A stretch of DNA of 64,000 bases from Raillietiella orientalis (lineage: Eukaryota), in the NCBI GenBank assembly GCA_036172245.1, contig JAYWIR010000040.1, positions 248,001 through 312,000 of the forward strand. The letters are read 5' to 3'. Each line of letters starts with the position of its first letter. Positions within the stretch are counted from its first letter, which is position 1. The notes under the pieces are model-generated. The model was not told the DNA's origin and searched no databases. It saw only the letters and a program-made list of their open reading frames with translations. Positions 734-60,777 of the stretch are shown here, one piece after another. Position numbers and translations under genes: made by a program.

Positions 734-1402
734 GACTCGGCAGGAGAGGAGCAATCTCCCGACTGTCAAGAAGGTGACTCCGTTGCCGCCTTTTAAAGGC
801 GTAGCGAAAGCAGCGCACCCAGAGAACGCAGCGAAAATTCCGGAGGTTTCCGCAACTACTGTCGCGGAAGCCTCCGAAAATCGCGAAGGCGAATGGAAGG
901 TTGTGGAGAGGAGGAAAGAAAGATCTCCCCAAAAAGCTTCGCAACATCCATCTCTGAGCTCTTCCAAACTAAAAAGCAGTCGCGCGAATACGAAAACACG
1001 CGCGGCTTGTGCCTCTTCCCAGGAAAAAGCCAGCGCCTTCAACGCGTGCAAGTCCGCTTCTGTGACCGCCGAGAAGACCATTCCGGTGCAATCGGACGGA
1101 TGCAAGCGCACGTCGATCGTGCGAGCATCAGACTCCGCAAAGGAGTCCGATAGCGCCGCTGAACGACGCGTAACTCGCGCGGGAGCGAGCGCCCGCAGGG
1201 CTGAAACCCTGAGGCGTGACACACTCGCCGCAAAACGGCGAGTGCTCACCCCGGAACCAACAGGTTCTGCACCCGGGGAGGAGCACTCGATTGCGTGTAG
1301 CACAGTTGAGGCCGGTGGCGACCGCGCCCTCCAGCCCGTCGTACTGCTTACTGCCCGCTCGCCGGGTGAGGCGAGCACCACGGTCTCGCTTTCCCAGCCG
1401 TG

Positions 1403-4400: not shown

Positions 4401-4971
4401 GCTGGTGCAAGCCGCCACTCCTCGGAATCGGGCGAAGGGCCTGCTTCGGTGGAGCGAACATTTAAGTGTGCCCCCCGGAGAGACAGTGCCCCCCGTTTGT
4501 TTGGACAGCTTCGTGTTCCCCCTAAAGTGGAAACAAGATGTGCTGCTCTTTTTACATTGTGCATTACACTGTAATAGGCAGCGAAGCATCGTTTCCGGGG
4601 GAGCTGCTTTGCCAAACTGTTTAAAGTGCGGAGAGATCGAGTCTTTTCCGCACCTTTTGCTGGACTGCGGTGACCTCCGGGAACTGTGGCGAAGGCTCAC
4701 TTCGGCCATCATGCCACAAAGAGGCCCTGCCATTGATGTGCTGCGGCGCTTCTTCAGCAGAAATGGACTTTCGGTTTGCGCGATTGTCGCAACCATGTGT
4801 TGCGTTCGCGCCATCGTGATGGCCGGCTACGCCCTGGAGTTGTCAGCGCAGCGAAGGGAGGCTCACCTGCTTGCAGCTCAATTCATGAAGAAGGCTTCAA
4901 GGTGGTCTCATCTTCGTGACAAGGTGAATGAGGACATCACCGGCATACATCGCCGGTTTACACAGCTTTGA
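1403..4971 (+). pseudogene. ORF2 (APE endonuclease-reverse transcriptase-CCHC), disrupted
   Basis: Collinear ORF pieces 1400-2683, 2711-3535, 3605-3898, 3814-4101, 4123-4971 separated by stops/frameshifts. Confidence 0.9.
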
Positions 4972-5294
4972 GAACGGCGTAATCCGGTGACCCCTGCGAC
5001 CTCTCGCCCACCCATACTTCGTCCCCGTTCGCTCGGTAAAATTTCCGGTGCCTATGCTTTTATCCCCGTGTCTTCCAGAGCGATCCCAAAGACCCTTATC
5101 CCGTCCTCCTTATTCATTGTTTTTATTTTATTTTGGTTTCTTTGTGTTCCACGCCCCCCCACACCGTTCGCAAAACTGTTACTCTGGCCTGCGTGCCAGC
5201 AATATTCTCTTCATTCTTGTTCAGTCGTCGGTGTGGAGTTTGGTTCTTAACTGGTTTATTTTGTAAAATTGCTTTTTTTGGTTATGTTATATGG

Positions 5295-5320
5295 AATAAA
5301 CGCCCCGGCGTGTCCGGGTG
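5295..5320 (+). terminator. Representative 3'-terminal signal: AATAAA + CGCCCCGG-N5-CCGGGTG hairpin (14 copies in the window)
   Basis: Follows every non-B ORF2 stop + U-rich UTR and precedes an abrupt switch to another element; function is inferred. Confidence 0.7.
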
Positions 5321-5324
5321 AGAA

Positions 5325-5870
5325 ATCTCCTGCGCTTGTTCTGCAGAGATCACATGGATCTCCTGCAGCAGCGCAAGGTCGAACGATCCTAGAATGGCGG
5401 CCATGTCTCGCCTTCTGCCGGCGTCTGTCATGCCGTTCACGTTCCAAACGGCGATGCGCAGACGACGGCGTGAGGGGATTACCGGCAATACTGCCGGGAA
5501 GATGACGGTGTGGGGAAACCCGCCTCTTCCGAGGCGGGTGAAATGACCATTAGGATTTCAGCCTCCTCAGGCACCTTGGGTACCTTTCCGGCTTCAACCC
5601 CCTCCATCTCCTCCGTGTCTGTGCGTGGTGGTCTCTCGGGTGACGATTCCTGGGATTCTCACACGCTCATTGCACTCTCGCAGTCCGAAGTCATCTCCAC
5701 GCCTTCAGCCTGGAGAGGGGCTATCCGGGGTTTGCTGGACTTCCTTCCAGCCTTCCGGCGGGGTGCCGCGGAGATGGAAACTTGGTTTCCGGCCTGCGCT
5801 TCGGGGTCGGAAGTTACCGACTCCTCGGTGGAGGCTGGACGCCTCACTGCCTTTTTGCAAGTCTTGAAGG
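5325..5870 (-). mobile_element. ORF1 C-terminus / ORF2 start of a D-like element, bounded by two insertions
   Basis: KKAVRRPAS...PRRKAGRKS, then RRRLRIAVWNVNGMTDAGRRRD...EQAQEI; similar to 12067-12620. Confidence 0.85.
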
Positions 5871-7977
5871 TTTACACCCGGGTACGCCCGGGGCGTTTAT
5901 TGTTAAAACTCTACATCCAAAGTACAAGGCCCCGCTCACGGCCATATACACTGGACCTGCCAGGACGCCAAGACGCAGCACAGCGTAGCGTTCCTCAGCA
6001 GCGAAGGGGGATGGGGATAAAACAAAAAGAAAAATAAAAAATAAACAGACAAAAAGAAGTTGGAGGGCAGGGAAGGGATCACTGAACGCTGTGAGGAGGA
6101 CTCATCCGTTGAAGGAAGCCCTCGAGGTCATTCCGTATATTCCCCAGTTGGGGCCATCCGGCAGCTCTCCGCATGAAGCGTTGGGCGTATGGGATGACAT
6201 CCCTCGCGTGTGGACCCACTCCTTCGTTATTGGCGTCGCTCCATGCCGCCACGATGCCACGGACACAGCACAAGGCTGCGATGGCTGCGGATGGGTGCAG
6301 TGCGTCCTTCACGAAGAGGGGCCGAAGAACGTCTCTGGGGGTGCTGCCCGTAGGGAGCCCGAGGGTCGCCCCGAACCGTTCCCAGCGGGGTCGGATGGCA
6401 GCACAGTCCACAATAAGGTGGCAGAGCGATTCCCGCTCTCCGCATTTGACACACTCAGGATCCACAGCTCCCCTTGTCCAGTAGAAGCGGCGTGCGTTGC
6501 AGGGTAAACCCAAGTGCAGCAGTAGCAACGCCGACTCTTGCCACTTAAGGGGCAGGATCCTGGATTCCTTCAGTACCGGGGGCCACTTCAGCACATCCGT
6601 AGGGATGGCGAGCAGCTCGCCCCATCTCATCAATCCACGCGGCTGGACCCTCGGGGTCGTGGCGTCCGCCAGTTCTCCTGTGGTCCAGCCGCTTAACATC
6701 TTCTCCCTGCCTGCAATCTGGCAGGTGACTTGCCACCTCGGCTTCTGGCGATCCTGAAGCGCCCTCAGGAGGTAGGGCATCGCCTTTGCAAGGGGGGTCG
6801 TCAACGCCCACCTCCGACTTCGGGGAAATCCCAGTATTTCCCGCAGGGTGCGGATGGCGTATGGGCCGATTCGCAGGCAGTTCATATTGTTTTCACTCCT
6901 CCGGTTCTGCTTAGCCCATGTGCCAGCAGACTCCTCCAACCAGGCGGAGGAGTTGACGGGGCCACAAATCATCCAATCGTTTGTCTTCGCCAGGGTTGCT
7001 ATGCGTCCGAGCATAAGGCCGCATATTCGGATCTTCCGGCCAGGGCACAGAAGAAACGACGCGAGTCCTTCGCATCGGGACAGACGCCTGGCGAGGAGGC
7101 ATGCCGGAACGCACCAAGGGGTGCTCCACATCTTCGCTGCGATGGCAAGGGTTCGCCACCGCAGCTGGATTTCCACGCGCTCCAGCGTCAGGAGGCCAAG
7201 GCCGCCGTCCCGACGCGGAGCGCACAAGTCCTTCAGAGGGACTCGGGGCCTACCCTTGCCCCAAAGGGCTATGCGGAGGAGGTTCCTTGTCCTCTTTTTG
7301 CATTCTCTGAGGGCGGAGCAAACAAAAAGCAAGAAGCGGAGGATGGGGGCCGCAAAAGCGTTCCAAAACGCGGCCTGTTCCGGCAAGTGAAACTTCCCTT
7401 CCAAGAACGGGCCGATCGATGTCTCAACTTTTTGAAGACAGCTGGACCACGCTTCCGCAGGGGAGTGGTCACCCAACGGCACACCAAGGTACTTGAGGCA
7501 CCTCGCCGTGGGGATCCCCAGACGGACCCAGTCCTGCTGCCCTGCAAACGCTGCACCTACTGGCACCACCAACGACTTCGCCCTGTTGACCTGCAGTCCG
7601 GTCCCACGGCTGAGCAGATCGAAGAAGTCTCCGACCGCCTTCGCCGGGGTAGACATAGGTAACAGGAGAAGAAGGTCGTCGGCATAGGCTGCTACGGAGG
7701 GCGTGCCGGGACACGAGCTCGGCAAGGACGCCAAAGTCACCATGTAGGCTCTCAGAACCAACTCAAAGTAGGTGCTGAAGAGCAGGGGACTCAAGCTATC
7801 TCCCTGCCTGATGCCCCGCCGCACCGTCACGCCATACACCTTCTGACTACTGAAAAAGATGGAGATAATCGCATTCCGCCAGCAAGAGCGCAGGTAGGTA
7901 ATCAAGGAGGGTGGGAAGCCCATGCGACCCAGGAGATTCAACAAAAGCCCCTGGTCAACACAGTCGAACGCCTTGTG
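5871..7977 (-). mobile_element. Family C, 3' half (RT from KAFD to 3' terminus); uninterrupted frame 7944-6079
   Basis: RQGDSLSP, YADD, CVKC..HLIVDC; AATAAA+hairpin at 5901-5875; very similar to 10000-12066. Confidence 0.92.
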
Positions 7978-8090
7978 CGCTCTAAGGTGGACGTGTTTTT
8001 TTGGTGCTCCTCGTGCCAGGAAGTCTCCCCCAGTGCAAGCGTCGTGTGGTTCGGTGGTCGATCAGGCAGCGATGCCTGACGCGATCGACG
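7978..8090 (+). mobile_element. Family D 5' terminus (5' UTR and first ORF1 codons MPD)
   Basis: ggacgtgttttt...ggtgctcctcgtgcc...ggtggtcgatcaggcagcgatgcctgac matches the reverse complement of 23600-23700. Confidence 0.85.
7989..8000 (+). promoter_or_regulatory. Representative 5'-terminal motif GGACGTGTTTTT (candidate internal promoter; 8 copies/variants)
   Basis: Lies within ~5-12 nt of the 5' junction and upstream of the ORF1 ATG in families C-G; function is inferred. Confidence 0.5.
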
Positions 8091-8754
8091 GAGTCGATTC
8101 CGGACCTACTTCTGGACTGCGGTGTCCTACAAGGACTGTGGCGTAGGCTGGCAACAGCACTAATGCATCCCGTGGACACCTCAAGAGACTTGCTGCGACG
8201 ATTTTTCACGCCGAGCGGGCTGTCACTAAGCGCAAGGATTGCAACCATAGGTTGCATACGCGCGATAGTTTCCGTCCGCCAGGCGTTGGTAATCAACGGA
8301 CAGCACCATGAGGTCATCAGCAAAGCATCCTTCTACATGGGAGCATCCGCTAGATGGCCTCATTTGACAGAGGAGACAAAAAGGAATCTCGCCGCAATAC
8401 ACCGCCGGTTTACACACCCTCAGCAGCGGCGAACCCCGTGATCATTGCCCTACCCTCCATAAACTAATTTTGTATTTTCTTTTTACACCCGCGTCCCCAT
8501 AGGCTCCGGAACATTTGAGGTGCTCATCGTTTAAATCCCCGTGAGTACGGAGCCTAACCAAAAACCCGTTACCCTTCCCTCCAGTTTTTGATTTTTGTTT
8601 GTTTCCCCTCATTCCTCCCACGCTGCGAGCGGTTTGTTTACCAGGCCTGCGTGCCGGTAATTTTTCTATGTTCTCTGTCGTTCTGTTGGTTGGGGACATT
8701 GTCCCTGACCAGTTTATTATTATTAATAAACGCCCCGGCGTGACCGGGTGATAA
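8091..8754 (+). mobile_element. 3' terminal fragment of an A/E-like element
   Basis: LLLDCG.LQGLWRRL...IHRRFT C-terminus, U-rich UTR, AATAAA+hairpin 8725-8750. Confidence 0.85.
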
Positions 8755-11700
8755 ATTTCAATCTCCGCCGGCTAACATGTGAGCCGGAAACACAGGTGAA
8801 CGCGATGAACAAGTTGTGCGCCGCCATGCGTGCGCGCAACTTGTTCGCGGGTGAGAGAGGAATGGTCCGCAGCATCGACCACGTCTTCCTCGACGCTGAC
8901 CTGTGTTCATGGGTCGGCAAACGGGGGAGGGTTGCGTCAACCTTTTCGGACCATTCCCGGTTAATTTTCGAGATGCGGCTTTGCGACAAAAAACCGCCAT
9001 CCAGGGACTGGCGTCTGCCAGGGGACTGGACGCGACTCTCAGGTGCGAAGGAACACCTTCGCGAATACCTGAGAGGCGTCACGCTCCGGAATCTCCAAGA
9101 CTGGGACCTTTTTAAGGAATCGGTCCGGGAATTCTGCGAGCAGTTCCCCCTGGACCGCCTGCCCTCCGGATTCGGCGAGGGTCCTCGCAACCATTCGGCC
9201 TATTTACAGGCCCGAAGGTACGAGCGAACCCCTAATGTCCGTCGCCTGGCCGAGTACCGCGCCGGGGCCAAACGCCAAGCCTGGCAATCCGGGTCGGTCA
9301 GCTTGCTGGACGACCAGGGCCGGGAATGTTCGTCCCCGGCGTCGGTACGGCATCTCGTGCGGAGTTATTATTCCTCCCTTTACGCCAGGGCGCCCCCGGA
9401 TCAAGATGCCTCTCGGCTATTGCTTCCGGATGGTGCCCCGGCAATAGGGGAGGAGGAGTCGTTAAGCCTCGATGAGCCTTTTACCACCGGCGAAATTCTC
9501 GCCGGTATCAAAAGGCTCAAGAGGCGGAAAGCTCCAGAGGAAGACGGCTTGCCCGCGGAGTTCTATCAGAGCTTCGCGGAAGAGCTGGCACCCCTGCTGC
9601 TTCAGCTGACAAGGCTGATCCGAGACGAAGGCGATGTTCCCGCCTCGTTTCGGTCAGCCAGAGTGAGGCTCCTTCCGAAAGGGGGAGACCTTAGGAATTT
9701 GAACAACTGGCGTCCGATCACGATTGTGAATACGGACGGCAAGTTGGTTGCCGGGCTATGGGCTTCGCGTCTGGGGCAGGTGGCAGACTCCATTATTAGT
9801 CCGGAGCAGACATATGCTGTTCCCGGGCGAAGTATGGATGCCAACCTCTTCTTCGCGAGCACATGGATGCACGCGCAGAGGTGTCAAAAGGAAGGGAAAG
9901 GAAAAATCGGCAACCCCACTTTGGGGCCGCCAGCAGGGCAGGGAATGGACTCCCGGGCGGGGAAGGGGGCCTTAGCGCTCGCAGTCGATCTCCATAAGGC
10001 GTCCGACTGTGTTGACCAGGGGCTTTTGTTGGAGCTCCTGGTTCGCATGGGCTTCCCACCCTCCCTGATCAACTACCTGCGCTCCTGCTGGCGCCATGCC
10101 ATCATTTCCGTCTCTTTCAGCAGTCAGAAGGTGCATGGCGTGCCGGTGCGGCGGGGCATCAGGCAGGGAGTTGGTGCTGAGAGCCTACAGGGTGACTTTG
10201 GCCTCCTTGCCGAGCTCGTGTCCCGGCACGCCCGCCGTAGCAGCCTAGGCCGACGACCTTCTGCTTCTGTTACCTATGTCCACCCCGGCGAATGCGGTCG
10301 GAGACTTCTTCGATCTGCTCAGCCGTGGGACCGGACTGCAGGTCAACAGGGCGAAGTCGTCGGTGGTGCCAGTAGGTGCGGCGTGGGCAGGGCACCAGGA
10401 CTGGGTCCGTCTGGGGATCCCCACGGCGAGGTGCCTCAAGTACCTTGGTGTGCCGTTGGGTGACTACTCTTCTGCGGAAGCGTGGTCCAGCTGTCTTAAA
10501 AAGTTGAGACGGCGATCGGCCCGTTCCTGGAAGGCAAGTTTCACTTGCCGGAACGGGCCGCGGTTTGGAACGCCTTCGCGGCCCCCATCCTCCGCCCCTT
10601 GCTTTTTGTTTGCCCCGCCCCCAGAGAATGCAAAAAGAGGACGAAGGACCTCCTCCGCATCGCCCTTTGGGGCAAGTGGAGGCCCCGAGTCCCTCTGCAG
10701 GACTTGTGCGCTCCGCGTCGGGACGGCGGCCTTGGCCTCCTGACGCTGGAGCGCGTGGAAATCCAGCTGCGGTGGCGAACCCTCGCCATCGCAGCGAAGA
10801 TGTGGAGCACCCCTTGGTGCGTTCCGCCCCGTCACCTCGCCAGGCGTGTCCCGATGCGATGGACTCGCGTCGTTTCTTCTGTGCCCTGGCCGGAAGATCC
10901 GAAGATGCGGCCTTATGCTCGGACGCATAGCAACCTTGGTGAAGACGAACATTTGCATGGTTTGTGGCCCCGCCAACTCCTCCGCCTGGTTATGAGTCTG
11001 CTGGCACATGGGCTAAGCTGAACCGGAGGAGGTTAAACCACATAAACTGCCTGCGAATCGGCCCATACGCCAACCGCACCCTGCGGGAAATACTGGAATT
11101 TCCTCGGAGTCGCAGGTGGGCGTTGACGACCCCCCTTGCTACGGCGATTCCCTACCTCCTGAGGGCGCTTCAGGATCGCCAGAAGCCGAGGTGGCAAGTC
11201 ACCTGCCAGATCGCAGGCAGGGAGAAGATGTTAAGCGGCTGGATCACAGGAGAACTGGCGGACGCCACGACCCCGAGCGTCCAGCCGCGTGGATTAATGA
11301 GATGGGGCGAGCTGCTCGCCATCCCTACGGATGTGCTGAAGTGGCCCCCGGTACTAAAGGAATCCAGGATCCTGCCCCTTAAGTGGCAAGAGTCGGCGTT
11401 GCTACTGCTGCACTGGGGATTACCCTGCAACGCACGCCGCTTCCACTGGACAAGGGGAACTGTGGATCCTGAGTGTGTCAGGTGCGGAGAGCGGGAATCG
11501 CTCTCCCACCTTATTGTGGACTGTGCTGCATCCGACCCCCCTGGGAACGGTTCTGGGCGACCCTAGGGCTCCCTACGAGCAGCACCCCCAGAGACGTTCT
11601 TCGGCCCCTCTTCGTGAAGGACGCACTGCAGCCAGCCGCAGCCATCGCAGCCTTGTGCTGTGTCCGTGGCATCGTGGCGGCATGGAGCGACGCCAATAAC

Positions 11701-12066
11701 GAAGGAGTGGGTCCACACGCGAGGGATGTCGTCCCATACGCCCAACGCTTCATGCGTAGAGCTGCCGGATGGCCCCAACTGGGGAATATACGGACGGACC
11801 TCGAGGGCTTCCTTCAACGGATGAACCCTCCTCACAGCGTTCAGTGATCCCTTCCCTGCCCTCCAACTTCTTTTTGTCTGTTTATTTTTTTTTATTATTT
11901 TTTTTTTTGTTTTATCCCCATCCCCCTTCGCTGCATAGGAACGCTACGCTGGGCTGCGTGTCGGCGTCCCGGCAGGTCCAGTGCATATGGCCGTGAGCGG
12001 GGCCTTGTACCGCGGATGTAGAGTTGTTTTTTAAAAATAAACGCCCCTGGCGTACCCGTGTGTAAA
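8755..12066 (+). mobile_element. Family C ORF2 from endonuclease (D)FNL to 3' terminus, frameshifted
   Basis: IDHVFLD, SDH, KAPEEDGLPAEFY, NNWRPIT, CVRC..HLIVDC; AATAAA 12036-12041 + degenerate hairpin. Confidence 0.92.
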
Positions 12067-15000
12067 CCCCCAAGGCTGGCAAGAAGGCCGTAAGGCGTCC
12101 GGCCTCCCCTCAGGAGTTCCCCACTTTCGACCCCGAGGTGGAGGCCGGAAGCGCAGCCTGCGTTTCCACGGCACCGCGCAAGAAGGCTGGACGTAAGTCC
12201 ACAAAGCCAAGGAAGCTCGTCTCCCCCGTCGAAGGGGAAGAGATGGCTTCCGCGAGCGAGGGCGCCATGAGCGTGGGAAACTCTCGGGACCCGTCGACCG
12301 AGAGACTCCCACGCGCGGACACGGAGGGGATGGAGGGGGTGGAGGCCGAACAGGTGCCTCAGGTGCCTGAGAAGGCCGAAACCCCCATGGACATCCCGCC
12401 CGCCTGGCAAGAGGCGGGCTCCCCCACACCTTAATCTTCCCAGCAGTAATGCCGGGAATCTCCTCCCGCCGTCGTCTGCGCATCGCCGTTTGGAACGTGA
12501 ACGGCATGACAGACGCCGGCAGGAGACGAGACATGGCCGCCCTTCTCGAGTCCTACGACCTTGCGCTGCTGCAGGAGATCCACGTGATCTCTGCAGAACA
12601 AGCGCAATAGATCGAACGGATCTCCGGAGGGCGGCTATGGTACAGGCGTGGGAGAGCGAAAACTTGCGGTGTCGCCTACCTGCTTCGGCCAGCCGTCGAG
12701 GCCGCGGCTAGGGGCGTGCGGTTCGACGATCACGGTCGTGTCGGCCAGCTGACTCTCAGGTGGTCCGAGTCGATTGATCTGATCGTCACGAACGTGTACG
12801 CACCGAGCGGCAAGGACCTGATGAACAGAAGGGCGAGGAAAGAGCTTTTCCTTGCCCTCCGGCGAGACTGGCTGAGCGAAGCAGGCGTGCGGAATGCCCA
12901 TCTGGTTGCTGGCGATTTCAACGTTCTCCTGAAACCAGATGAGCAGAATCCTGTGCGTGACCTGGTCAACGAGGTGTGCATGGCGGTGCACACCTGTAAT
13001 CTGTTGGCCAGTGCACCGGGGATGGAAGGCAGCATTGACCACCTGTTTCTTGACGAGCACCTGTGCCCTCGCGTGGACAGGCGCGGGAAGTTACCGTGCG
13101 AGCTGTCCGACCACCGCCCGCTAGTCCTCGAAATCCATCCGCGCGACAGGGGTCCCCCTCGTCAGCGTGGCGTCTCCCAGGAAAATGGCTGAAGCTCCCG
13201 GACGCGGCGGAACATCTCCGCACGTTCATACGGAGCTTCAGGCTGCGGACACTCCAGGATTGGGACCGCTTCAAGCGGTCGGTCCAGGAGTTTTGCGACC
13301 AGTTCCCTCTGCACCGCCTACCTACGGGTTTTGGGACCGGGGTCCTTAAGGAACGAGCCTACCTGCAGGCCTGTCGTTACGCCAGGACCCTCGACATCCT
13401 CAGGCTGGCGGAATACAAAGCGGGAGCCGAGAGGCAAGCATGGCACTCCGGATCGGCCAGCTTACTGGACGATCAGGGCCAGGAGCACACGGCACTTGCT
13501 TAAATCCGCGGCCTGCTGCGGAGTTACTACTCCTCCCTGTATGCCAGGGCACCTCCGGATAGAAACGTCTCACGACTCCTGCTTCCGGAAAGCGCTCCAG
13601 CGATCGCAAAGGAGCAGAGAAAGACCCTCGACGAGCCTTTCACGATGGACGAGATCCTCTCGGCCATCGGAAAGCTCAAAAGGCGAAAGGCTCCAGGGGA
13701 GGACGGCCTGCCCGCGGAGTTTGATCAAACTTTCGCGGCTGAGCTTAGCCCCCTGGTACAGCAACTCACCTTGCTGATACGCGAGACAGGTGACGTTCCC
13801 GCCTCGTTTCGTTCGGCAAAGGTGCGGCTCCTCCCTAAGGGAGGAGATCTGAGAAGCGTGAACAACTGGCGTCCCATCACAATAGTGAATGCGCACGCGT
13901 AGTTGATAGCCAAGATGTGGGCAGAGCGTCTGGGACGGGTTACCAACATCTTCATCAGCCCGGAACAGACATATGCTGTTCCCGGGCGAAGCATGGAGCC
14001 GAACCTGTTACACGCTTCCACCTGGCTAGAACTCCAACATGAAAGGAGCTTGGTGCGCAACCGGAATTCCGGTGCGTGCGCCGGCAAGGGGTTGGATGGT
14101 CGGGTGGGGGAGGGAGCCCTTGCGGACGCAATCGACTTGCGAAAAGCATTCGATTGCGTCGACCAGCATCTCCTTCTGGAGATTTTGGAACGCTTGGGCT
14201 GAACGGCCTCATTAGTAACCTATCTGCGCTCCTGCTGGCGCGAAGCGCTCAACAATGTTACTTTCAGCGGGCAGACCGTGCACGGCGTGCCGGTGCGGCG
14301 TGGGATCCGGCAGGGAGACAGCCTGAGCCCCTTGCTCTTCAGTACCTGCTTTGAGTTGGTACTGAGAGAGCACAGGGGAACTCTGGCGCACCTACCGCCC
14401 GACTGTCCCGGTACGCCGGCCGTTTCAGCATACGCGGACGACCTTCTGCGGCTGCTCCCTATGTCCACCCCGGCTGCGGCGGTCGAGGAGTTCTTCGACC
14501 TGCTGCATAGGGGAACCGGACTTACGGTGAACAGGGCGAAGTCGTCCGCGATGCCAGTTGATGCGGCGTGGGCAGGGCAGCAGGACTGGGTCCGTTTTGA
14601 GATCCCCACGGTGAGGTACTTCAAGTACCTTGGTGTGCCGTTGGGGGACTACTCCCTTGCGGAAGCGTGGTCCAGCTGCCTCCAAACAGTAGAGACGGCG
14701 ATCGGCCCGTTCCGACGCGGCAGGTTTTTCCTGCCTGAACGGGCCGCGGTTTGGAACACGTTCGCGGCTGTTCTCCTCCGCTTCCTTCTTTTTGTTTGTT
14801 CCCCCACAGGGAGGGACAAAAAGCGGACGAAGGACCTCCTCCGTATCGCCCTTTGAGGCAACGGGAGGGCCCGAGTCCGCCTAAAGGACTTGTGCGCTCC
14901 TCGTCGGGATAGTGGTCTGGGCCTTCTGACGCTGGAGCGGCTGGAGCTTCAGCTCCAGTTCCGCTTGTCGGCACTCGTTCCAGAGTTGTCATGCACCTGT

Positions 15001-16246
15001 TGGTGCGTCCCTGCACGTCTCCTACTTCAGCAAGCCACCGGCAAGACGGGACTGACGTCGTTTCTTGCACTCCCTCTCCGCGTCAACCGATGCGGACTCC
15101 AGCTACAAAGGGTGGCTGCGCTGTATCGGAAAAACCCAGGATTGCTCACCTGTCGCCCGTTTAACGGTAGTGCCTGGTTGCAGTAAACCGTTCGAACGTG
15201 GGGACAGTTCGGCATGCAACGCTCCCAACAGGAACGAAGGTTCCAGTTTGGGGGTTACAGAAGTTGCACGCTCGGCGATATCCTGGAGGATCCAAAGAAG
15301 AGAGCGTGAGCAGGTAGAACCATCCTCGCTGCTGCGCTGCCCTCCCTGATGGAAGATCTGGACAGCGATGTTGCGGCGAAGTGGGTGGTTACAGCAACAA
15401 TCTCCGGAAAGGAGAAGAAGATGGAAGAGTGGAAGACGAACCAGTTAACAGACGCTGCGACCCCGTGTACGCCTCCCAATGGACTTCTGAGCTGGGGCGC
15501 GCTGCTCGATGTTCCCATTGAACATCTGAAGTGGCCCACGGTGCTCATGAACACTTCCGCCCTCCCCTTAAAATGGCAGGAGTCGGCTCTCCTGTTGCAG
15601 CACCTGGGACTATCCTGCAACGCCCGGCGACACCACTGGACCTCGGAAGCGGTGGACCCCAATTGCGTCAGGTGTGAGGAACGGGAGTCCCTCACCCACC
15701 TGCTAGTGGATTGGGTTGCCTTTCGGCCCCTTTGGTTTCGCTTTGCCGCAGCCATCGGAATCCCCTGCGGCAACCCCAGGGATGCACTGAAAGCCCTCTT
15801 CTTTGCCGACGCCCTTCGGCCAGCGGCCTCGTTAGCAGCTTTGTCCTGCCTACGCGGGATTGTCACCACTTGGAGCAAGGCGACGGGAGGACAACGCGAC
15901 CAGGGTGCCATCCAGCCAGCCTCTTAGTTCCTGAGGAGGGCCTCCCGATGGCCCCACCTGGATCCAGGAATACAGAAGAAGCTTGCCGGCATCCTGAAAA
16001 GGATGCAACGGCCCCACATGCAACTGTGATCCCTCCCTTACCCTCCCAAGTTTTCTTTTCTTTTTTGTTTTGTTTTTTGTATTTCCCCCTTCCTCCTGCT
16101 GCCGTGTTGGACCGTACTGGTCTGCGAACCGGTGAAACGGCAGGCTCTGTGTTTCTTCGTGCGTAGCTGGAGCAATGGTCCAGCCACCGCACGTCGTTGT
16201 AAATGTTTATTTTACAATAAACGCCCCTGCGAAATCCGGGTGAAAA
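12067..16246 (+). mobile_element. Family D: ORF1 C-terminus, decayed ORF2 (12449-~16029), 3' terminus
   Basis: TAATG 12447-12451, WNVNG, GDFN, DLRKAFD, YADD, CVRC..HLLVD; many stops; AATAAA+hairpin 16216-16242. Confidence 0.92.
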
Positions 16247-19200
16247 TCGAACGCCTTGTGGAGATCGACTGCGACCGCCAAGGCACCTGGCGTTCCCTCC
16301 TGCCGTCGGCGCCTGTTCTTCTTGCCTGCGGCAGTGACTTTCTGAGCAGCCTGGCTCTGCTGCGCCACAACTTCCTTCAGCTGCATCCATGTACGCGCGA
16401 AAAGGATGTTCGCCTCCATGGATCGTCCCGGAACCGCGTAGGTTTGTTCCGGGCTCACCACAGATTCCGCGATACTTCCTAACCGCGCGACACACAGCTT
16501 GGAAAACAACTTCACGTCCGAGTTCACCAAGGTGATCGGACGCCAGTTGTCAAGTTGACGCAAGTCTCCGCCTTTTGGCAGGAAACGCACCTTTGCTGAG
16601 CGGAAGGAATCCGGGACATTCCCGGATTCACTCATCAGCGTCGCGAGTTTCAGCATCAAGGGAATGAGCTCCTCTGCGAAGCACTGATAAAACTCTGCAG
16701 GGAGCCCATCCTCGTCTGGCGCCTTTCGTCTCTTCAGCCCAGCGATTGCGGACGAAAATTCATCCGTCGTGAAGGGCTCGTTGAGACGTTCGCGTTCCTC
16801 CTCGCCGAAAAACCGAGCATTCTGAGACAGTAGTATCTTAGAAAGAATATCCTCCGTTGAAGATTCCGCGTACAGCGAGGAGTAGTAGCGTCTCACAATG
16901 CGGCGTACTTCGGCTGGGGCCGAACATTCTGGCCCTTGTCGTCCAACAGGCATGCTGCTCCGGTCTGCCAGACCAGGCGCTCGGCCCTCGCCTTGTACTC
17001 TGCGAGACGCCCGACATCCGCGCGTCTTGAAAACGTGCGGGCCTGCAGAAAGTCTCTACTGTTGGCCACGCCCTCTCCGAAACCGCGTGGAAGCCGGTGC
17101 AAGGGGAATTGTCAGCAGTACTCGCGGACAGATCTTTTGAGATCGTCCCAGTCCCCAAGTTCTCGAATGGCAAAGCCTCGGAGGTATCCACGTAGATGCT
17201 CCGCAGCCTCCGGTTGGCTAAGCCAATCCGCCTGCATCCTCCAGCTTTGCAACGGAGGCCCCCTGCCTGGCGGAAGAATCTCAAACTCCAACCTGTGGTG
17301 GTCAGAAAGCTCAGTCAACAATCTTCCTCTCCTACCCACACGCGAATGCAGGTTTTCATCGAGGAAAACGTGATCGAGCGATCTTTCCATTCCAGGATCG
17401 CTGACCATCAAGTTGGCGGCGTGCACGGACGCGCACATCTCGATGGGCAGCGCGCGCTCCCTCGGGCGGCTCCAATCGTCGGAGAGCAGGCGGACGTTGA
17501 AGTTTCCAGCGACGAGGTGCGCCACTTGGAAGCCGGAGTTGTTGAGCCACTGGCTCTGCACCTCACCAAAGAAAGCTACTCTTTCTTCGAGGTAGCGAGA
17601 GCCACTCGGCGCGTAGACGTTTGTAACGACGAGATCGATGGACTCGGACCACTTGATGACAAGCTGGCCTATCCGTCCGTCGTCATCGAAACGAACACTA
17701 CGCACCGCTTCCGCCATTTTTCCTCTTACGAGGAACGCGACGCCGCACGTGTGTGCGCCGCCGCACCGCCAATGTAGCGTTCCGCCTGCGCGCTCCTCGA
17801 TTTCGGCTGCCTGCTCGTCGGAGATTACGTGAATCTCCTGCAGGAGCGCGAGGTCGAAGGGGCGCAGGGCGTTGGCTACTAATCGCCTCTTCTCGTCGTT
17901 CTGTAGTCCGTTCACGTTCCAACACGTTACGGACAGACGACGAGAAGACGCGATTCCCCGCATTACTGCTGGGAAGGTGGCGGCTTTTTGCTCGCTTTAT
18001 CCGGCGAGCAGACGGCGAGCAGCACGACTGGCTGGAGGGGACGGTCGCCACCGTCCTCTGTCGTGCTGCATGCATGTAATGCCTCCACGCCAGGCTTAAC
18101 CCCGTTGGGTTTCGTGGAAACTTCGCGTGGCTTTGTGGCTAGCGTTGCCTGGCTGCCTACTTTTGATCGGCGCGCACGCGCTTTCGAACGAGTTGTCCTC
18201 GTCTCGGTGATCGGAACTGCATCCATTTCGGAGTCCGACCGGCGCATGTTCGATCGGGTTTCGGTCTTCCACGAAATAGTGACAGGTTCTGCTGGATTGA
18301 CAGCTGTCCTGTTGTTTTTTCCGTCTCGAGAGCATCGCTTTTGGTGACGGTTGCTTTCATGGCGCGCGCGTTTTCAGCGTGCTCACGCGAAGTTGCACGA
18401 GAGACCTTTGCTGAAGACTTCTTTACTTCATTACAATTCCTCACTTCGCGTGGCGCCGTAAATGGAGATTGTGCTCCATTGCCATCTTTGAAGCCATCCG
18501 CGTCTTTGGACAGGAGCACTTTCCATGGCTCCGACACGCTTGTCATGGACGCTGCCTTCGGTAGGGCTTTTAATCCCTTCGTTGGCATGGCATCCGCGTC
18601 AGTCGAGAGCTTGCTCTCCGACTGCGTCGGCGTGAGATTTTTCTCCGCTTTCGCGGTGTTGGATCGCGACGCAGATTTTTTTTTGCGGACTTTCGAAGTC
18701 GACACGGCACAACCCTTCTTACGCGATTTGGGCTTCTCAGCCACTGCGGGAGTTGAAGGAATGGATCTGACGGTACTGGAAGTGTCCTTAACGCCGTTCT
18801 CCATTGGCGTCACCGCCGGCTGCTCGAACTCCGAGAGAGCCGGGCGTGCTTGGGAAAGACCGCTATTGCGCCTAGGGGGACTTACCTTTGCCCCGGATTC
18901 CCTGCACCCTTTTTTTTGCGGCTCCCCTGCCGCGAGAGGGGGCGCGCAGGCCTTCGCATGCGAGGTTTCCTGCTGCTTTGGGGCGACATTCCGCCTCGCG
19001 TTTTTTCGGAATTTCTGCCGTGGGGTCTCCAGGTTTTTCGCAGAATTTTTCTTTTTATCCGCGCTTTCTTTTTTAAAATGGAGCTCCGCGGCTGCCTTTT
19101 TTCGCAAAAGATCCGGGCAATTTTTCAATTGGTGCCCTGATAGTTTGCAATAACGGCATTTTCCAGAGGGGCATTTATCCAAACAATGCCCCTCCTTCCC

Positions 19201-19962
19201 GCATTGCTCGCATGTTCTTACTTTGCCCACGAACCACAGGTGAACGACCGTGTCTTTCAGCTGTAGTTTGGTGGGCAGCAGACGGCGGTCCGGCATTGTA
19301 AGCCGGACTCCAGCGAATCCGCTGTGTATGGACGGGAAGTCATTGAGGTTGCTACGCACCCTCCACAGCGCATGGACCGTGGCGAATTTCGCCAACGCGT
19401 TCCGAATATCAATAACGGAGATTTGCGACTCGATGTCGAAAATCTCCGCAACAAATGAGTCGTCCATGGCGGCCGGGAAGTCCTTCTGGCCACGGATCGA
19501 CAACGGGGTGCGCAGCAAGCGTTGCACAAGTGCAGCGTCTTTGCAACGCACCTTTAAATAGCCCATGTCTTTTACGGACATAATGGCGAGAAGGTCCTCC
19601 TCCCGCACGCCAACATGGGTCAGTTCATCGTTGAACTGATTTCCGTCGCGCGCAGAAAGAAAACCACTCACCTTATATCGGAGAGCAGGTCTATAGCCTT
19701 GGGCTACGTATGCCCGCAACTCCGACTCGTCGAGTGGTTTCCCTTTGACGGCTGCTGTGGCGGCAACGTCAGCAAAACTCCTCTCCATTGGCGACAAAGA
19801 CGAAGTGGAGGCGGCCGTCGGTTCCGCGATTGCAGATCCGGATGCTGTTCCTCCAACTTCAGTAGCTTCAAGTTGGGTCAACATCGTCGTCAAAATGTAC
19901 GACGCCAAGATGAAGCGGATGAAAGCACGGAGACGAGAGCGAAGAAAAACACGTCCGCACTC
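16247..19962 (-). mobile_element. Family E, 5' part (5' UTR, ORF1, endonuclease, RT up to KAFD)
   Basis: 5' motif at 19956-19945; ORF1 with two CCHC knuckles; TAATG at 17965-17961; ORF2 CWNVNG...DLHKAFD. Confidence 0.92.
17963..19884 (-). pseudogene. Family E ORF1 (gag-like, 2x CCHC zinc knuckle, long K/S/A-rich tail), probable frameshift near 18340
   Basis: CEQCGKEGHCLDKC and CRYCKLSGHQLKNC; C-terminus (LQPVVLL..PPSQQ) lies in another frame. Confidence 0.8.
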
Positions 19963-22270
19963 GATTGAAATCTCCCGCTATCAGGTGAGGCTACCGCACG
20001 CTCGTGTTCGCCAGCCAGTCTCCCTTCAGGGATTCAAGCAGCCTGCTACGGTTGCTGTATCCCTTTTTGACCGGTTCGGACGTACACATTCGTGACGATC
20101 AGATCGATCGAGTCGGACCAGCCGACAGTCAGCTGACCGACCCGAGCGTCGTCATCGAAGCGCACGCCCTTCACGGCAGCGTCGATGGCCGGCTTGACGA
20201 AGAACGCGACCCCGCAGGTGTTGCGGATGCCGCATTGCCAGTACAGCCGACCCCCCGCGATCGCCTCGATCTCCTGGACGTCTGCCGCGTTGATCACATG
20301 GATCTCCTGCAACAGGGCCAGGTCGAACTCCCGCAGGGTGTCGGCTGTATCTCGCCTGTTACCCTCGTCGCGCAGCCCGTTGACATTCCAACAGGCCGCG
20401 CGAATCCGACGGCGACTGGCGAGCCCAGGTGTTACTCCTGGGAAGATGGCGATGAGGCGTCCGCCACCTGCTTGGGCAAGACGCTAGGTGGAGGAGGAGG
20501 GTCAGGTGCTGAAGGCACCTCGTCCCCCTCCTCCATAGGTAACGGCGCGTCGAGCCGATCAGCCACAGGTGGTGTCGCCTACCTGTTCGCCCTCCTCCAC
20601 GTGGGCGGGCTGTTCAGGCTCGGCGACTGCAGGAAGGACTTCGCCCCCCTGCTCACCCTCCTTCATAAAGGTGGCTGGCTCGACGGCTTCCGAGCGTGGG
20701 AGTTCCCCCTCTGGGATTCCCACGCTAGCGCTACCTTCCTGCTTCTCCTCCTCGCTGGTGGAAGGGAGGCGCCTCCTGGGTTTCTGGGACTTGCGTCCCG
20801 ACTTCCTGGGGGGTGCCTCCGAGGAGAAGGATGTACTTCCGGTCCCAGGTCTAACTCATCTGTGGGGGCCTTCTTCGCCGGAGCCGGCCTTCGCACGGCC
20901 TTGCGCGATGGGTTCTCACGCTCGGCCAGCGTGACCGCGAGCTCCTCCGTTGCCTGCGCGAACGCGGCGTCCGCGGCTTCGACCGCCGCTTTGTCGCGCG
21001 GCTCACCCTCTGTGTAAACAGAGGGTTCGCCGTCGCGAGCCTCGGGCGCAGCGGAAACGGCAGGGGGAGGATCGTCGCTCCGGGTGGCAACCTCGGGAAC
21101 GACGCTTCGTTCCAGTGCCACCGTGCACTCGCCAGAGTTTTCGAGCGCGGACCGGGTTTTTTCGGCTTACCGGCCGTCTTGCGCTCTTTGCTCTCCGCGG
21201 ATGGGAGTTTCTTTGGCTTTCTGGCCTCTACAAGCTGCCATCCCTCTTCGCCTTCCACCGTTTCAGAAGGTTTATCCTCCGAATTACGCGCCGGAGGTTG
21301 AGGTGTTTGCAGCTTGTGCTGGCCCTTTTCCACTTTAGGTCTAGAGACCTTTGAAGCGCGTTTCCCCTGCGCTTTTTTCGCGGCAGGGGGAACCGGGGTG
21401 GGGCGTTTGGGGCACACGCGCCGAACGTGGCCCCGCTCCCCGCACAAATGGCATTGTATATTGGGACACCTTTTACGTAGGTGTCCCACGGTATCACAAT
21501 GCCCGCAATACCGGGGCTTCCCTACATACCACAGGTCGACGTTTTCTTGCGCCACCTGTAGTTTGTGGGGAAGCCCACAATTCTCCCTTACGGTGATCCG
21601 CGCTGCAGCCTGCCCACCAAAAAGGCTATCGAAGCCGTCGAAAATGGAGGGTTCCGGCCACAGTGCGTGCACCTCACCGTTCTTTCGCAGTTCTTCACCA
21701 ACCGCTGACCGCGTCTTGCGGCTGGTGATGCCAGTCATGTGGACCACCACGGAGCGGTCCACTGATACTGGCAGGATCTTGCGGCCGTCTACGTTCAGCG
21801 GCGCATGGATTAGGCGGTGAGCCAAGGTGACATCTTTGGAGACCACCTCGACCCGCTGCCCGCCGCTGAGGACAGAGAGGCCGTCCAGATCCTTCTCAGT
21901 GACATTCGCGTCCTTCAACGCTTTGGTGAAGGCGCGCGCTGTCCGGCCGTCGAACAAGTTGCCTACCTGGTAGACCAGCGATCTCTTGTACTCAGAGGCC
22001 TTGTATGCGGCCATCTCGGCCATGGTTTCTGCGCTGGGCGCGTCCACCATGGCGCTCCATGTCCTCGGCGTGGCCGGGGATGATTCCGGGGCGGCTGCCC
22101 CTGCTCCAGTAGGCTGTGGGGGCGAACTAGCCTCCCCCAGTCCCACCTCCATCGCGGTGTCCTCTGGCGTCGTGGCCATTGGACACCGACGATGTACACA
22201 AAACACCACACACAAGAAAGCGCTTTCCTACTACCCTTTGAGGAGTGAAGGAAAAACACGTCCTCCAACT
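19963..22270 (-). mobile_element. Family C, 5' part (5' UTR, ORF1, endonuclease up to GDFN)
   Basis: Starts AGTTGGAGGACGTGTTTTT; ORF1 MATTPEDTAMEV..CGHCDTVGHLRKRC..CHLCGERGHVRRVC; ORF2 CWNVNGLRDEG..HLIAGDFN. Confidence 0.92.
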
Positions 22271-23705
22271 GGCCTTGGAGGGGGCTGGCTGCAACGATGC
22301 TGCCAGCTCCTCCGCCGCACGCTCGAAGGCGGCGTCATCGATCACCGTCTCGATTACGGACGCTTCCGCCGGTTCGCTCCCCACGCTGTTGACATTTTCA
22401 ACAGTGGATTGCTCGTCGGAAGCAGCGATTTCTACCTTGCGGCGTTCGACGAAGACGAGTTCCACGACGACACTGCATTCTTTTAAATTCTCGCTAACCT
22501 GCTGTTTTTTATTTTGGTAGGCGAGCTTTTTTTCAATTCGTCGTTCTTTCTTTGACTTTTTCTTTTTCGCTGTGGCTTCTTGCCATTCCGACACCTGACC
22601 GCTTTTGTCGATCTTTTCGGCATTCGTTGCCGGGGTGTCGGCTGAGGCCTGGAACACGGGAGTGGGTGGCACAGCTTGAGCGGCAGCCTTCGCCGCCAGC
22701 CTTTTCTGTAGCAGCCGCGCGCGTTTTTTTAGGTTCCTCGCGGAATCCACGCGCACAGCGGATTGTGGACACACTTTCTTCGTGTGGCCCATTGTCCCGC
22801 ATACCAGGCACTGTACGTTGGGGCACCTCCTTTTGAGGTGTGCCGACGTGTTGCAGAAGCCACAGTATTTGGGCTTCCCCACGTACCAGAGGTCGACGCT
22901 TTCTCCGCCGACCACCAGTTTGTGGGGATGGGTAGAGCCCTCCCGAACGGTTACACGGGCAGCCGTGAGGCCGCACTGAACTGTGGTATAGTCCTCGAAA
23001 GGACTAGGCTTGGTCCATACTGCATGGACCGTGCCTTCTTTTCCCAACACGGCGCGTAACTGTTCTTTCCGCATCCGCGCGGTAACTCCTAAAAGGTAAA
23101 CCACCATACTGTGGTCCGCCGCAACGGAAAGGAGCCTGCGTGTCCCCATTACCACGGGGGTTTTAAGCAGACGTTGGGACAGATCTGCATGTTTGCAGAT
23201 CACCTCTACGTACTGCCCCCCGCTACGAATGGTCATAGCGCACAGCTCCTCTTTAACATCGAGAGCGCGCATCCCCTTCGAAAAGGCGCGCGCACTCTCA
23301 GAAGAATACAAATTTCCTACCTTGTAGAATAGTGATGGGTTATACCCCTCTTCCACATATGCAGATAATTCCGCCGCGGCTGCAGGAGATGGCGCCGACA
23401 CGACGGCGCTCCACGCCCGCGCTGCAGCGGGGACCGGTTTTGTGGGGGCGGACGTCCCCACCTCCTTCGCCACTGAAGGCGACGTTGCCGCCGCCCCCTG
23501 GCACTTCAACATTTCTAGAGGCGACGTTGCCGCCGCCACTTGGCACTCAATTTCTTCAGGAGGCGACGTTGCCACCGCCCCCTGACACGCACTGGTGGTC
23601 GTGTCAGGCATTGCTGCCTGATCGACCACCACCACACACGAAGCCTACACCTATGGACCGTTCCCGGCACGAGGAGCACCGAGAAAACACGTCCGCTCTA
23701 GCCGA
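22271..23705 (-). mobile_element. Family D, 5' part (5' UTR and ORF1 up to LQPAPSKA)
   Basis: 5' motif ggacgtgttttc at ~23694-23683; ORF1 MPDTTTS..CGFCNTSAHLKRRC..CLVCGTMGHTKKVC. Confidence 0.9.
23478..23590 (-). repeat. Three 42-bp tandem repeats in the family D ORF1 N-terminus (CQ.AAATSP)
   Basis: ggcgacgttgcc recurs at 23478, 23520 and 23562. Confidence 0.85.
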
Positions 23706-25820
23706 CGTAAAGCTTTCGACTGCGTCGACCAGGAACACCTTTTGGAGCTCCTGGAACGCATGGGTTTCCCGGCCGTGCTCCAGTCCTACCTGCGCTCCTG
23801 CTGGCGCAAAGCGTCAATAAATATTGGTTTCAGCGGCCGGCACGTGCACGGCGTGCCAGTGCGCCGCGGTATCCGGCAGGGTGACAGCCTGAGCCCCTTG
23901 CTCTTCAGCATCTACTTCGAGTTGGTGCTGAGGGCATACAGGGTAACTCTGGCAACCCTACCGAGATCGTGTGTCGGCACGCCTGCCGTGTTGGCCTATG
24001 CAGACGATCTTCTGCTGCTGCTTCCCGGGTCCACCTAGGCGAGTGCGCTCGAGGACTTCTTCGAGTTGCTGCGCCGCGGAACGGGCCTGGAGGTGAACAG
24101 GGCGAAGTCGTCCATGGTCTTTGTGGGTTCGGCGTGGGCTGGACGGTCGGACTGGATCCGCTTGGTGATCCCCACGGGCAGGTGCTTCAAGCACCTCGGC
24201 GTACCGTTGGGGGACTTCTGCGCAGCAGAAGCCTGGTCCGACCGTCTCCAAAAGGCAGCGTTGGCGATCGGTCCGTTCCAAGAAGGCAACTTCTACTTGC
24301 AGGAACGGGCCGCGGTGTGGAACGCGTTTGCGGCTCCCCTCCTTCGCCCCCTACTTTTTGTTTGCCCCGTTCCTTATTTTATTTGGAAACGAGCAGCGGG
24401 CCTCCTGAGGACAGTCCTTTGGGGCAAAGGGAGGTCCCGTGTGAGGATCAAAGACTTGTGCGCTCCACGTAAGGACGGTGGACTTGGCGTACTTACGTTG
24501 GAGCGCATGAAACTGCAGCTTGGTTTAAGGACTCTCGCCCTCGCGGCTGAATTGTGGGACACGCCTTGGTGCGTTCCAGCACGCCTCCTGGCCCAACAAA
24601 CCTGCGGAATCGGTGGACTTTTGTCGTTTCTGTCTGCGCGCGTCTGCAGAAGAGCATACTGTGGCTCTATGCTGCGACGCATCTTCGTTGCGGTTCGGGA
24701 GAACGCCTCGATCTCCTGCCACCCAGGGAACTACTCCGCCTGGTTGCACGAGTCAGTCTCCACCTGGGAAAAGATCCACGTTCCGGCGGGCACAAGGATC
24801 ACTTGTATGAAAAGGCACGCCCGCTGGACGCTGCAGGAGATCGTGCAGTCCCACGACAAGCTTCTGTGGGCCTTGATAATCCCCCTCGCCTCAGTGCTGC
24901 CCTTCCTTGTGGATGCCAGGGACAGTAGCGAGCAGGGGAAATGGACCGTGTCCTGCACTATAGGCGGCAGGACACAATCGATAAAGGCGTGGACATCTCG
25001 GCAGCTAGCTGACGCTGCGACGCCGAGTGTCCCGCTCAACGGAATTCGACGGTGGGGCGAGCTACTCGGACTATCTCCGGAGGAGATGAAGTGGCCCCCA
25101 GCGTCCTGGAACAGTGGATCCCTCCCCCTGAAATGGCAGGATGTGGCGTTGCTTGTGGTACTCTGGGGATTACCATTCAAAGCACGCCTGCACCACACCA
25201 CCCGGGGGGCTGTGGATCCCCAGTGCGACCGCTGCGGGGAAAAAGAGACCTTCCCCCACCTTCTCATTGAGTGCAGTGCCATCCGCCCTTTATGGGATCG
25301 CCTTACGGCGATCCTGGACTTCCGCGGATGCGGCCCCAAGGACGTTTTTAGGCGCCTCTTCTGTAGTGACGCCTTGTTCCCCCCCGCTTCTGTAGCAATC
25401 CTCTGCTGCATTCGAGGGATCGTGGCGGCTTGGAACCCCACCAGGAGAAGACGTCAGCCAACTGGCAACGCCTTACGATGGACTCGCATTTTCGCGCTCA
25501 GTGTCTGCAAGTGGAGCCACTTGGGCTCTGAAAGGACTCAGCTTGTCCGGATCGTGGATAGGATCTAGAGGACCTGCCCACGCGCAACGTAATCCCTTCC
25601 CTGCCCTCCCACCCCTAAAACATTTGTTCCCCCCCCCACATTTGAACTTTTTGTTTCTTTTTGTTTGTTATTTCTCATCCCCGCGCATCGCAAGGACCTC
25701 TCCGGCATGCAGCCGGTAACCAGCAAGCTGTTTTGGAGTGGTGAACCTTCGGGTTTGCCATGCGACATTTCTATGTAATTTTATTTCTAAGAAATAAATG
25801 CCCCGGAACATCCGGGTGTG
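23706..25820 (+). mobile_element. Family J, 3' half (RT from KAFD to 3' terminus)
   Basis: KAFDCVDQ, RQGDSLSP, YADD, CDRC..HLLIEC; AATAAA+hairpin 25793-25818. Confidence 0.9.
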
Positions 25821-37472: not shown

Positions 37473-37553
37473 GAGCGGACCTGTCTTTTCGTTGCTCCTG
37501 AGTTCCATTTCCGTTGGTGCTTGTGCGTGGTGTGGGTGGAGGATTAGGCAGAA

Positions 37554-60764: not shown

Positions 60765-60777
60765 GTCTTCCCCTTTT

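Follow-up and report, generated by a model that had tools for sequence, protein, structure and literature searches.

Locus and element classes

We analysed a stretch of 64,000 nucleotides from Raillietiella orientalis (GenBank assembly GCA_036172245.1, contig JAYWIR010000040.1, positions 248,001 to 312,000), hereafter called the window; all counts below are for this one 64-kb window and all coordinates are window coordinates. From position 734 to about 54200 it is made up solely of fragments and full copies of related non-LTR retrotransposons, forming an island without genes, and the subject of this report is a part of that island (5325-23705) in which several of these long interspersed elements (LINEs) lie one inside another. 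The window has a G+C content of 58% and a CpG observed/expected ratio of 0.99, that is, no CpG depletion; this ratio speaks against a vertebrate host with CpG methylation, in spite of the fish and turtle matches given below.

Domain predictions confirm that the island elements are L1-type non-LTR retrotransposons, with a first open reading frame (ORF1) followed by an ORF2 that encodes an apurinic/apyrimidinic (AP) endonuclease, a reverse transcriptase (RT) and a zf-RVT domain. A Pfam search of the long ORFs placed the AP-endonuclease at the N-terminus of ORF2 (PF03372, E 6.2e-12, at 17112-17963), the RT downstream of it (PF00078, at or above the cut-off on three ORFs and slightly under it on one) and zf-RVT at the C-terminus (PF13966, 27.6 bits with a cut-off of 27.5, on 24066-25568). 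The CCHC zinc knuckle of ORF1 scored under the cut-off (PF00098, 19.7 bits versus 20.8), and CX2CX4HX4C strings are visible in the ORF1 translations. Among solved structures, human L1-EN with its loop variants is nearest to the endonuclease (E 1e-5 to 5e-5). All named relatives found by protein searches are only about 25-35% identical, the best of them (fish, turtle, pseudoscorpion and Closterium) about 30%, with the high-scoring turtle match being a tandemly repeated RT fragment at 32% identity. The top relative is one metagenome protein (63% identity), the protein atlas gave generic endonuclease and RT clusters only, and a Zepp sequence was absent from the results of all protein searches.

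Judged by nucleotide identity of the endonuclease, the copies fall into two superfamilies that comprise at least eight families. Identities are 0.67-0.92 within the A/E-type (E, A1, H6 and Aref) and 0.65-0.76 within the C/D-type (Dref, D3, C and H1), versus 0.55-0.62 between the two types.

The families share their termini. A motif scan of the window found AATAAACGCCCCGG-loop-CCGGGTG(A/T)AAA at 13 element 3' ends, 12 of them on the plus strand. The motif consists of a hairpin (CCCCGG/CCGGG, with a variable loop) and a following TG(A/T)AAA. Its stem is invariant in 11-12 of the 13 copies, and because of this invariance the 13 copies show no covariation. AATAAA is 3'-terminal in every family, and the elements finish with only 2-4 A; they have no poly(A) or simple-repeat tail. 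At the other end, a 5' start with GGACGTGT(T/C)TTT is common to eight full-length copies. A metagenome scan with the 3' end motif returned nine loci, none of them homologous to the window, and these were rejected as chance matches.

Nested layers at 5325-23705

The outermost layer, D2, lies antisense in a copy of family F (Table 1). The tblastn match of F begins at KAFD, where the D2 5' end adjoins it (junction CG/TAAAGCTTTCGAC), and the 3' motif of F is at 25793-25826. Compared by tblastn with Dref, a full-length copy elsewhere in the window, D2 reads from 23611 to 22271 as ORF1 amino acids 1-423 without stops, and from 5870 to 5325 as ORF1 amino acids 422-533 plus ORF2 amino acids 1-55, resuming at the next residue. 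What separates these parts begins and ends with the outer C element, whose 3' end ...GGGTGTAAA is at 5871 and which is surrounded by 10-bp duplications (CCTCCAAGGC upstream and CCTTCAAGAC downstream). Outer C reads as far as GGAGATTTCAAT (GDFN), where it gives way to the 5' end of E (19962), and E in turn is interrupted at GTCGATCTCCACAAGGCGTTCGA (VDLHKAFD) by the 3' end of a plus-strand D element, D3, at 16246. At its far end D2 is cut by A1, with a 3' junction that reads GGGTGAGAAA/TCTCCTG; A3 at 49160 uses the same AQEI site.

The 5' end of D3, which was identified by alignment with that of D2, adjoins at 7978 the ...KAFD of a C-type 3' half with the flank CACAAGGCGTTCGA, and this 14-mer is identical (14/14) on both sides of D3. 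Its 3' junction, GGGTGAAAA/TCGAACGCCTTGTG, adjoins the reverse complement of VDLHKAFD in E, and its main part (12067 to 16246) is 77% identical to Dref positions 1447-5628. Within D3, the inner C ends at 12066 with GTGTAAA/CCCCCAAGGC, the latter being the PxKA site of D3, and an E-like element has its 3' end at 8754, against ATTTCAAT (GDFN) in inner C. The E-like tail (8091-8754) matches an A-type ORF2 C-terminus by tblastn, and it is 57-60% identical to A-type tails versus 45-54% to C, D, F and G tails. The initial annotation of this DNA had assigned this piece to E mainly by its target site; its A/E-type character is borne out by these values, and the assignment to E itself is tentative.

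All junctions named in that annotation are present within a few bases of the positions given there, and the nesting D2 > C > E > D3 > C > E-like holds, with C in D, D in E and E in C closing a loop.

Independent insertions at the same nucleotide

At these junctions, complete element termini stand against internal host sites. The outer and inner C-in-D arrangements are 93.9% identical in their C parts and 78.9% identical in the adjoining D parts. A third C-in-D arrangement at 33005 gives the same picture in comparison with the outer one, with 89.2% identity in the C parts (30977-33005) and 63.5% in the D parts. The jump in identity at the C/D junction means that the D hosts are different, and therefore that C entered one nucleotide three times independently. 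Target-site duplications measure 10 bp at PxKA, 14 bp at KAFD and 15-16 bp at DWD; Dref, for example, sits in host H1 (halves at 37366-37476 and from 43003 onward), flanked by the 15-16-bp duplication TGGAGATTCCGGAGC. The duplication at GDFN would be about ATTTCAAT, as pieced together from two different C copies. The junctions are confirmed as true insertion sites rather than a recombination mosaic.

One public DNA sequencing run (X1), sharing 0.19 of words, was available for comparison; no RNA run was listed. Its contigs are mostly diverged paralogues, with 34 of 308 pieces reaching at least 99% identity. One X1 contig links 5855 straight to 22272, skipping 16,416 nt (side of 67 letters, with 4 other letters between), and another links 12067 to 22287; both links read as D copies without the insert, that is, empty sites. 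A 3,755-nt contig spans 16247-19989 with 122 differences, and neither the 19962 nor the 8754 junction was bridged by X1 contigs with 31 letters per side. X1 set against 5001-24500 also gave contigs in which one copy is joined to another at paralogous RT positions (10548 to 24321 and 14681 to 24263), and such joins suggest that some copies in that sample are hybrids or have another arrangement.

A network of target sites

We mapped 14 element 3' ends, namely the 13 motif matches and that of Aref, which has a diverged motif. Ten of the 14 are located at one of six recurrent sites (Table 1), each of which is reused in a different host copy, and the orientation of insertion is constant at each site. 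The other four ends (25826, ~30962-30975, 47245 and 51420) are at singleton junctions. The relations that the initial annotation had proposed recur here: C enters D at PxKA, E enters C at GDFN, and D enters E and C, and F as well, at KAFD, each at more than one junction with fixed orientation. Every insert carries in fresh target sites, and the donor-host tabulation that the annotation had called for, made within the window, contains a cycle among families.

The simple form of that proposal needs revision. Its single D family consists of at least two, with D2 and D3 going to KAFD, and Dref, the third D and G4 going to the position before DWD. Likewise, the C elements at PxKA are distinct from C' at GFG, and A1 and A3 at AQEI are distinct from Aref, which lies 30 nt further on. 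A strict, non-transitive loop of the rock-paper-scissors kind is contradicted by C and D targeting each other, by the C-type 5' flank of D3, by A-type elements entering C and D (D2 is the D copy entered), and by D1-type elements entering not only C' but also H6, a copy of the A1 family (92% identical to A1). The relations form a many-to-many network of homing, and in such a network cycles are to be expected.

The own sequence of a donor can be compared with its target. E has the GNFN codons AACTTCAAC versus GATTTCAAT in its target, and A/E-type copies read GCCGAAATCGA versus CAGGAGATCGA in the target of A1 and A3; the donors at KAFD and DWD have own sites that are much like their targets. Self-avoidance of donor families is hinted at by the first two comparisons and is unproven.

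Table 1. Elements of the nest, copies used for comparison, 3' ends and recurrent target sites in the window
Feature	Position	Strand or orientation	Description
D2 (outer D), 5' part	22271..23705	-	GGACGTGTT motif, 5' untranslated region (UTR), ORF1 up to PxKA
D2, continuation	5325..5870	-	PxKA to about residue 55-64 of endonuclease, then cut by A1 3' end
C (outer), 5' part	19963..22270	-	5' end CAGTTGGAGGACGTGTT, intact ORF1 (454 amino acids), endonuclease up to GDFN
C (outer), 3' part	5871..7977	-	From KAFD; intact 621-amino-acid ORF, 3' hairpin, TGTAAA
E	16247..19962	-	5' end CGAGTGCGGACGTGTT, intact ORF1 (583 amino acids), endonuclease, RT up to KAFD
D3 (inner D), 5' end	7978..8090	+	GGACGTGTT motif, 5' UTR, first codons; breaks off at ~8084-8091
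E-like tail	8091..8754	+	Last ~660 nt of A/E-type element; ends GGGTGATAA at GDFN of inner C
C (inner)	8755..12066	+	GDFN to 3' end; starts ATTTCAATCTC
D3 (inner D), remainder	12067..16246	+	PxKA to 3' end; antisense insertion in KAFD
F	23706..25826	+	D2 host, KAFD to own 3' end
A1	728..5324	+	A-type; 3' end truncates D2 at AQEI, antisense
Third C copy, 5' part	30976..33005	-	At PxKA of third D; junction CCCCCAAGGC/CAGTTAGAGGACG
Third D copy (D1 type)	33006..34355	-	5' end to PxKA; 5' end adjoins DWD site of C'
Dref	37477..43002	+	Full-length, D1 type, PxKA empty
3' ends	5323, 5871, 8754, 12066, 16246, 25826, 43002, 46235, 47245, 49160, 51420, 52705		Shared 3' motif
PxKA site	C at 5871, 12066, 33005	sense	CCCCCAAGGC in D ORF1; 10-bp duplication
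GDFN site	E at 19962; E-like at 8754	sense	(G)ATTTCAAT in C endonuclease
KAFD site	D3 at 16246/7978; D2 at 23705 in host F	antisense	CACAAGGCGTTCGA in RT; 14-bp duplication
DWD site	Dref at 43002/37477; third D at 34355; G4 at 52705	antisense	Directly before GACTGGGAC; 15-16-bp duplication
AQEI site	A1 at 5323; A3 at 49160	antisense	After CAGGAGA
GFG site	C' at 37365; G1 at 46235	antisense	

Some further copies in the island are unusual. The third C copy contains the 3' end of Aref (30925-30975), which has the diverged motif AATAGATGCCCCGG...GGGTGACAAAC and is situated 30 nt downstream of where A1 and A3 enter AQEI. A1 (728-1400, plus strand) and H6 (53515-54187, minus strand) have a 92% identical endonuclease and the same 5' boundary, GACTCGGCA(G/A)GAGAGGAGCAATCTCCCG. 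Both are without the GGACGTGTT start, with about 670 nt ahead of ORF2 and no ORF1, and they may represent an ORF1-less subfamily. At 43003-53600, host and donor fragments, all of them short, are densely stacked a second time (H1-H6, G1-G4 and A3). There, H4 (49161-49326, endonuclease residues 1-64) and H3 (47245-47346, residues 60-93) appear to be one element split by a 5'-truncated A3, with CAGGAGA to either side of it. The island is bounded on both sides by another family, L, at 1-733 (minus strand), 54208-58363 (plus) and 59822-64000 (plus). L is a more AT-rich LINE (54% G+C) with about 22-31% amino acid identity to the island families; its two tandem copies on the right are 91% identical to each other, and the left fragment, in opposite orientation, is 95-96% identical to them.

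Insertion model, rearrangements and alternatives

We consider it likely that the island was built by stacking of site-specific insertions among sibling LINEs. In this model, the AP-type endonuclease of each family would nick one short sequence in the coding regions of other families, and the new copy would be made by target-primed reverse transcription in constant orientation, usually leaving a target-site duplication. Insertions would stack because every new copy carries sites that other families recognise. Site specificity is probably set by the endonuclease, and the shared 3' hairpin is probably the element that the RT recognises on the RNA. Target sequence carried on read-through transcripts has been proposed to guide priming in R1/R2-type elements; a donor within its own target would likewise yield read-through transcripts with target sequence, which could guide precise priming.

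For the nest, D2 would have entered F, followed by C into D2 and E into C. Loss of about 3.3 kb from the KAFD site of E to that of C would then have produced a hybrid KAFD site that D3 entered, after which C went into D3 and an E-like element into the C within D3. Finally, the three inner layers would have lost their 5' parts through an internal deletion (~8084-8091). For the two deletions, both their nature and their place in this sequence of events are inferred.

The first of these deletions concerns the host of D3, which is E-type at the 3' side and C-type at the 5' side. Both 14-mers flanking D3 read CAC, as E does, where inner C and C', the remaining C-type copies, read CAT. Given this CAC codon on the C side, one deletion prior to a single D3 insertion fits better than the two KAFD-inserted D copies and recombination that the initial annotation had assumed, and this single diagnostic base modestly favours a loss of about 3.3 kb, from the KAFD site of E to that of C, ahead of the arrival of D3. 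Both sites contain AAGGCGTTCGA and could both be cut by the D endonuclease; alternatives to the prior deletion are two D insertions with recombination or a single insertion bridging two cut sites. The annotation's other rearrangement, near 8090, is retained, with the break at ~8084-8091 probably being a deletion inside D3. Among the listed X1 joints, there is a loose end at 8083 and a differing continuation from 8084.

Several points weigh against the stacking model. Its support comes entirely from a single 64-kb window, and of the uninterrupted copies that were sought there to pair the separated halves, Dref does so for D2 and none was found for C or E. The halves of outer C are joined only via their common D2 target site, and the 3' half of E was not identified within the window. 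A1 is flanked by different hosts (L family at 733 on the 5' side and D2 at 5325 on the 3' side), and the C-type 5' and E-type 3' junctions of D3 require assuming a rearrangement; these two mismatches raise the possibility that target DNA is commonly lost at 5' joins in the island.

The ages of the layers also weigh against it, with no gradient towards the younger inner layers that had been expected. In a relative-rate test with C' as outgroup, 54 substitutions are private to outer C and 53 to inner C, and these substitutions have no codon-position bias. D3 is the most decayed layer (seven in-frame stops and one frame change in 3.4 kb), which a simple inner-is-younger order does not predict; stops plus frame changes elsewhere number 1+1 in E, 1+1 in outer C and 0-1 in D2, and inner C has at least two frame changes. 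Coding indels number five in inner C and none in outer C, and duplication mismatches are 2/10 for outer C and 0/14 for D3. These data fit insertions in quick succession with decay afterwards, and insertion of a ready-made composite stays conceivable in view of the stronger decay of D3.

Under such a composite origin, the inner block (7978-16246) would be a D3 locus made elsewhere, complete with C, the E-like element and the deletion, that was transcribed from its 5' end through to its 3' end and retrotransposed into KAFD as one piece of 8.3 kb. The junctions would remain real insertions, and the inner layers would be older than the enclosing shell. The block does carry both D termini in complete form, flanked by a perfect 14-bp duplication, and D3 and inner C have suffered more damage than the layers around them, as the coding indels of the two C copies illustrate. 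We nevertheless regard this origin as unlikely: the deletion joint at 8084-8091 has no second copy in the window, the X1 contigs (among their listed joints) continue differently at 8083/8084, and the substitution branches of inner and outer C are equal. In addition, LINEs usually copy their own functional RNA.

The anomalous joins, namely the break at ~8084-8091 and the E 5' half facing the C 3' half around D3, could instead be assembly chimeras, as the region consists wholly of repeats, neither join is bridged by a listed X1 contig with 31 letters per side, and X1 has the loose end and different continuation at 8083 and 8084. The exact 14-bp duplication around D3 is what a real insertion would give, and X1, with its predominance of diverged paralogues, is no test of this locus, so that we judge chimerism to be improbable. 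It is more improbable still that insertion is steered by chromatin, such as centromeric nucleosomes, with the island being a Zepp-like centromere and its shared sites coincidental. The island has no genes, and Zepp and ZeppL clusters are both centromeric and nested in the descriptions cited (PMC8226300, PMC3446292), but diverged hosts have been entered at the same six sites, to the nucleotide and in one orientation per site. A mosaic in which repeats were duplicated segmentally, inverted and recombined unequally, without sequence-specific insertion, can practically be dismissed. Although 5325-7977 and 9993-12612 are an inverted pair (89% identical) and any model needs two rearrangements, identity shifts abruptly exactly at element ends, which means that the repeated junctions did not arise by the copying of a single one, complete termini are joined to internal host sites with duplications, and the same sites are reused in hosts of different families. 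An inversion model, in which the inner C and D would be the true continuation of the outer 5' halves, was rejected on the D3 3' end lying exactly at KAFD with a 14-bp duplication and on D3 and D2 being only 79% identical.

Comparison with known systems

In Drosophila, the several LINE families HeT-A, TART and TAHRE add onto each other in a dedicated array. They do so head-to-tail at chromosome ends and are not known to enter internal coding sites or to leave duplications, unlike the elements described here. Homing introns and inteins are selfish elements aimed at highly conserved coding motifs that are hard for the target to mutate; they differ in mechanism and element class, and in the present case insertion destroys the target copy.

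Nearer parallels exist among LINEs. Target-specific AP endonuclease-type (APE) LINEs of the Tx1 and R1 clades include Tx1L (in Tx1D), R1, TRAS, SART, Keno and Mutsu (PMC4640811). The island elements resemble them, as portrayed in that source, in that they encode an AP-type endonuclease, insert at one target sequence in one orientation, and use multicopy targets, transposons among them (PMC4640811). C behaves as target-specific in this sense, having entered three D copies independently at one nucleotide and with one orientation. Known targets of the Tx1 and R1 clades are rRNA, snRNA and 5S genes, microsatellites, telomeric repeats and a DNA transposon, whereas here conserved codon blocks of sibling LINEs are targeted, and reciprocally; this comparison is by behaviour, not by clade.

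Zepp in Chlorella and Coccomyxa, and ZeppL in Chlamydomonas, form nested LINE arrays by targeting existing copies, according to the accounts consulted (PMC8226300, PMC3446292, PMC9940879). In common with them as described there, the whole-window map shows L1-type LINEs that enter existing copies and make up a gene-free nested LINE-in-LINE cluster. By its descriptions, Zepp is one or few self-targeting families with arrays mostly of 3' ends. Here, in contrast to that picture, there are at least eight sibling families, each with its own nucleotide-exact site in others, and many of the inserts are full-length. A literature search, with the original Zepp description outside its coverage, gave no account of sibling LINE families homing to each other's conserved coding motifs. 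What is observed combines features of two known kinds, those of target-specific APE LINEs and those of nested clusters like Zepp, with mutual targeting added.

A more far-reaching reading, which we put forward tentatively as possible rather than probable, is that the island holds a closed guild of at least eight L1-type families with diversified endonucleases, each homing to a different codon block and differing from its target in its own block. With the same reserve, the blocks would be GDFN, KAFD, DWD, GFG, AQEI and PxKA. If this guild exists, it would be a self-feeding cyclic network in which transposons eat transposons, with activity confined to one gene-free island; the families would coexist by mutual knock-out, and the network could explain the growth of a transposon-built, centromere-like region. 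Should the mutual targeting seen in the window hold genome-wide, it would offer a natural series of related AP-endonucleases with at least six DNA specificities for the study of sequence reading. It would also be an example of transposon competition and coexistence through mutual harm while sparing the host, and a way for transposon-only islands, such as algal centromeres, to grow without touching genes. The window stands as an intermediate between target-specific LINEs and self-piling of the Zepp type, and as a richer case than either.

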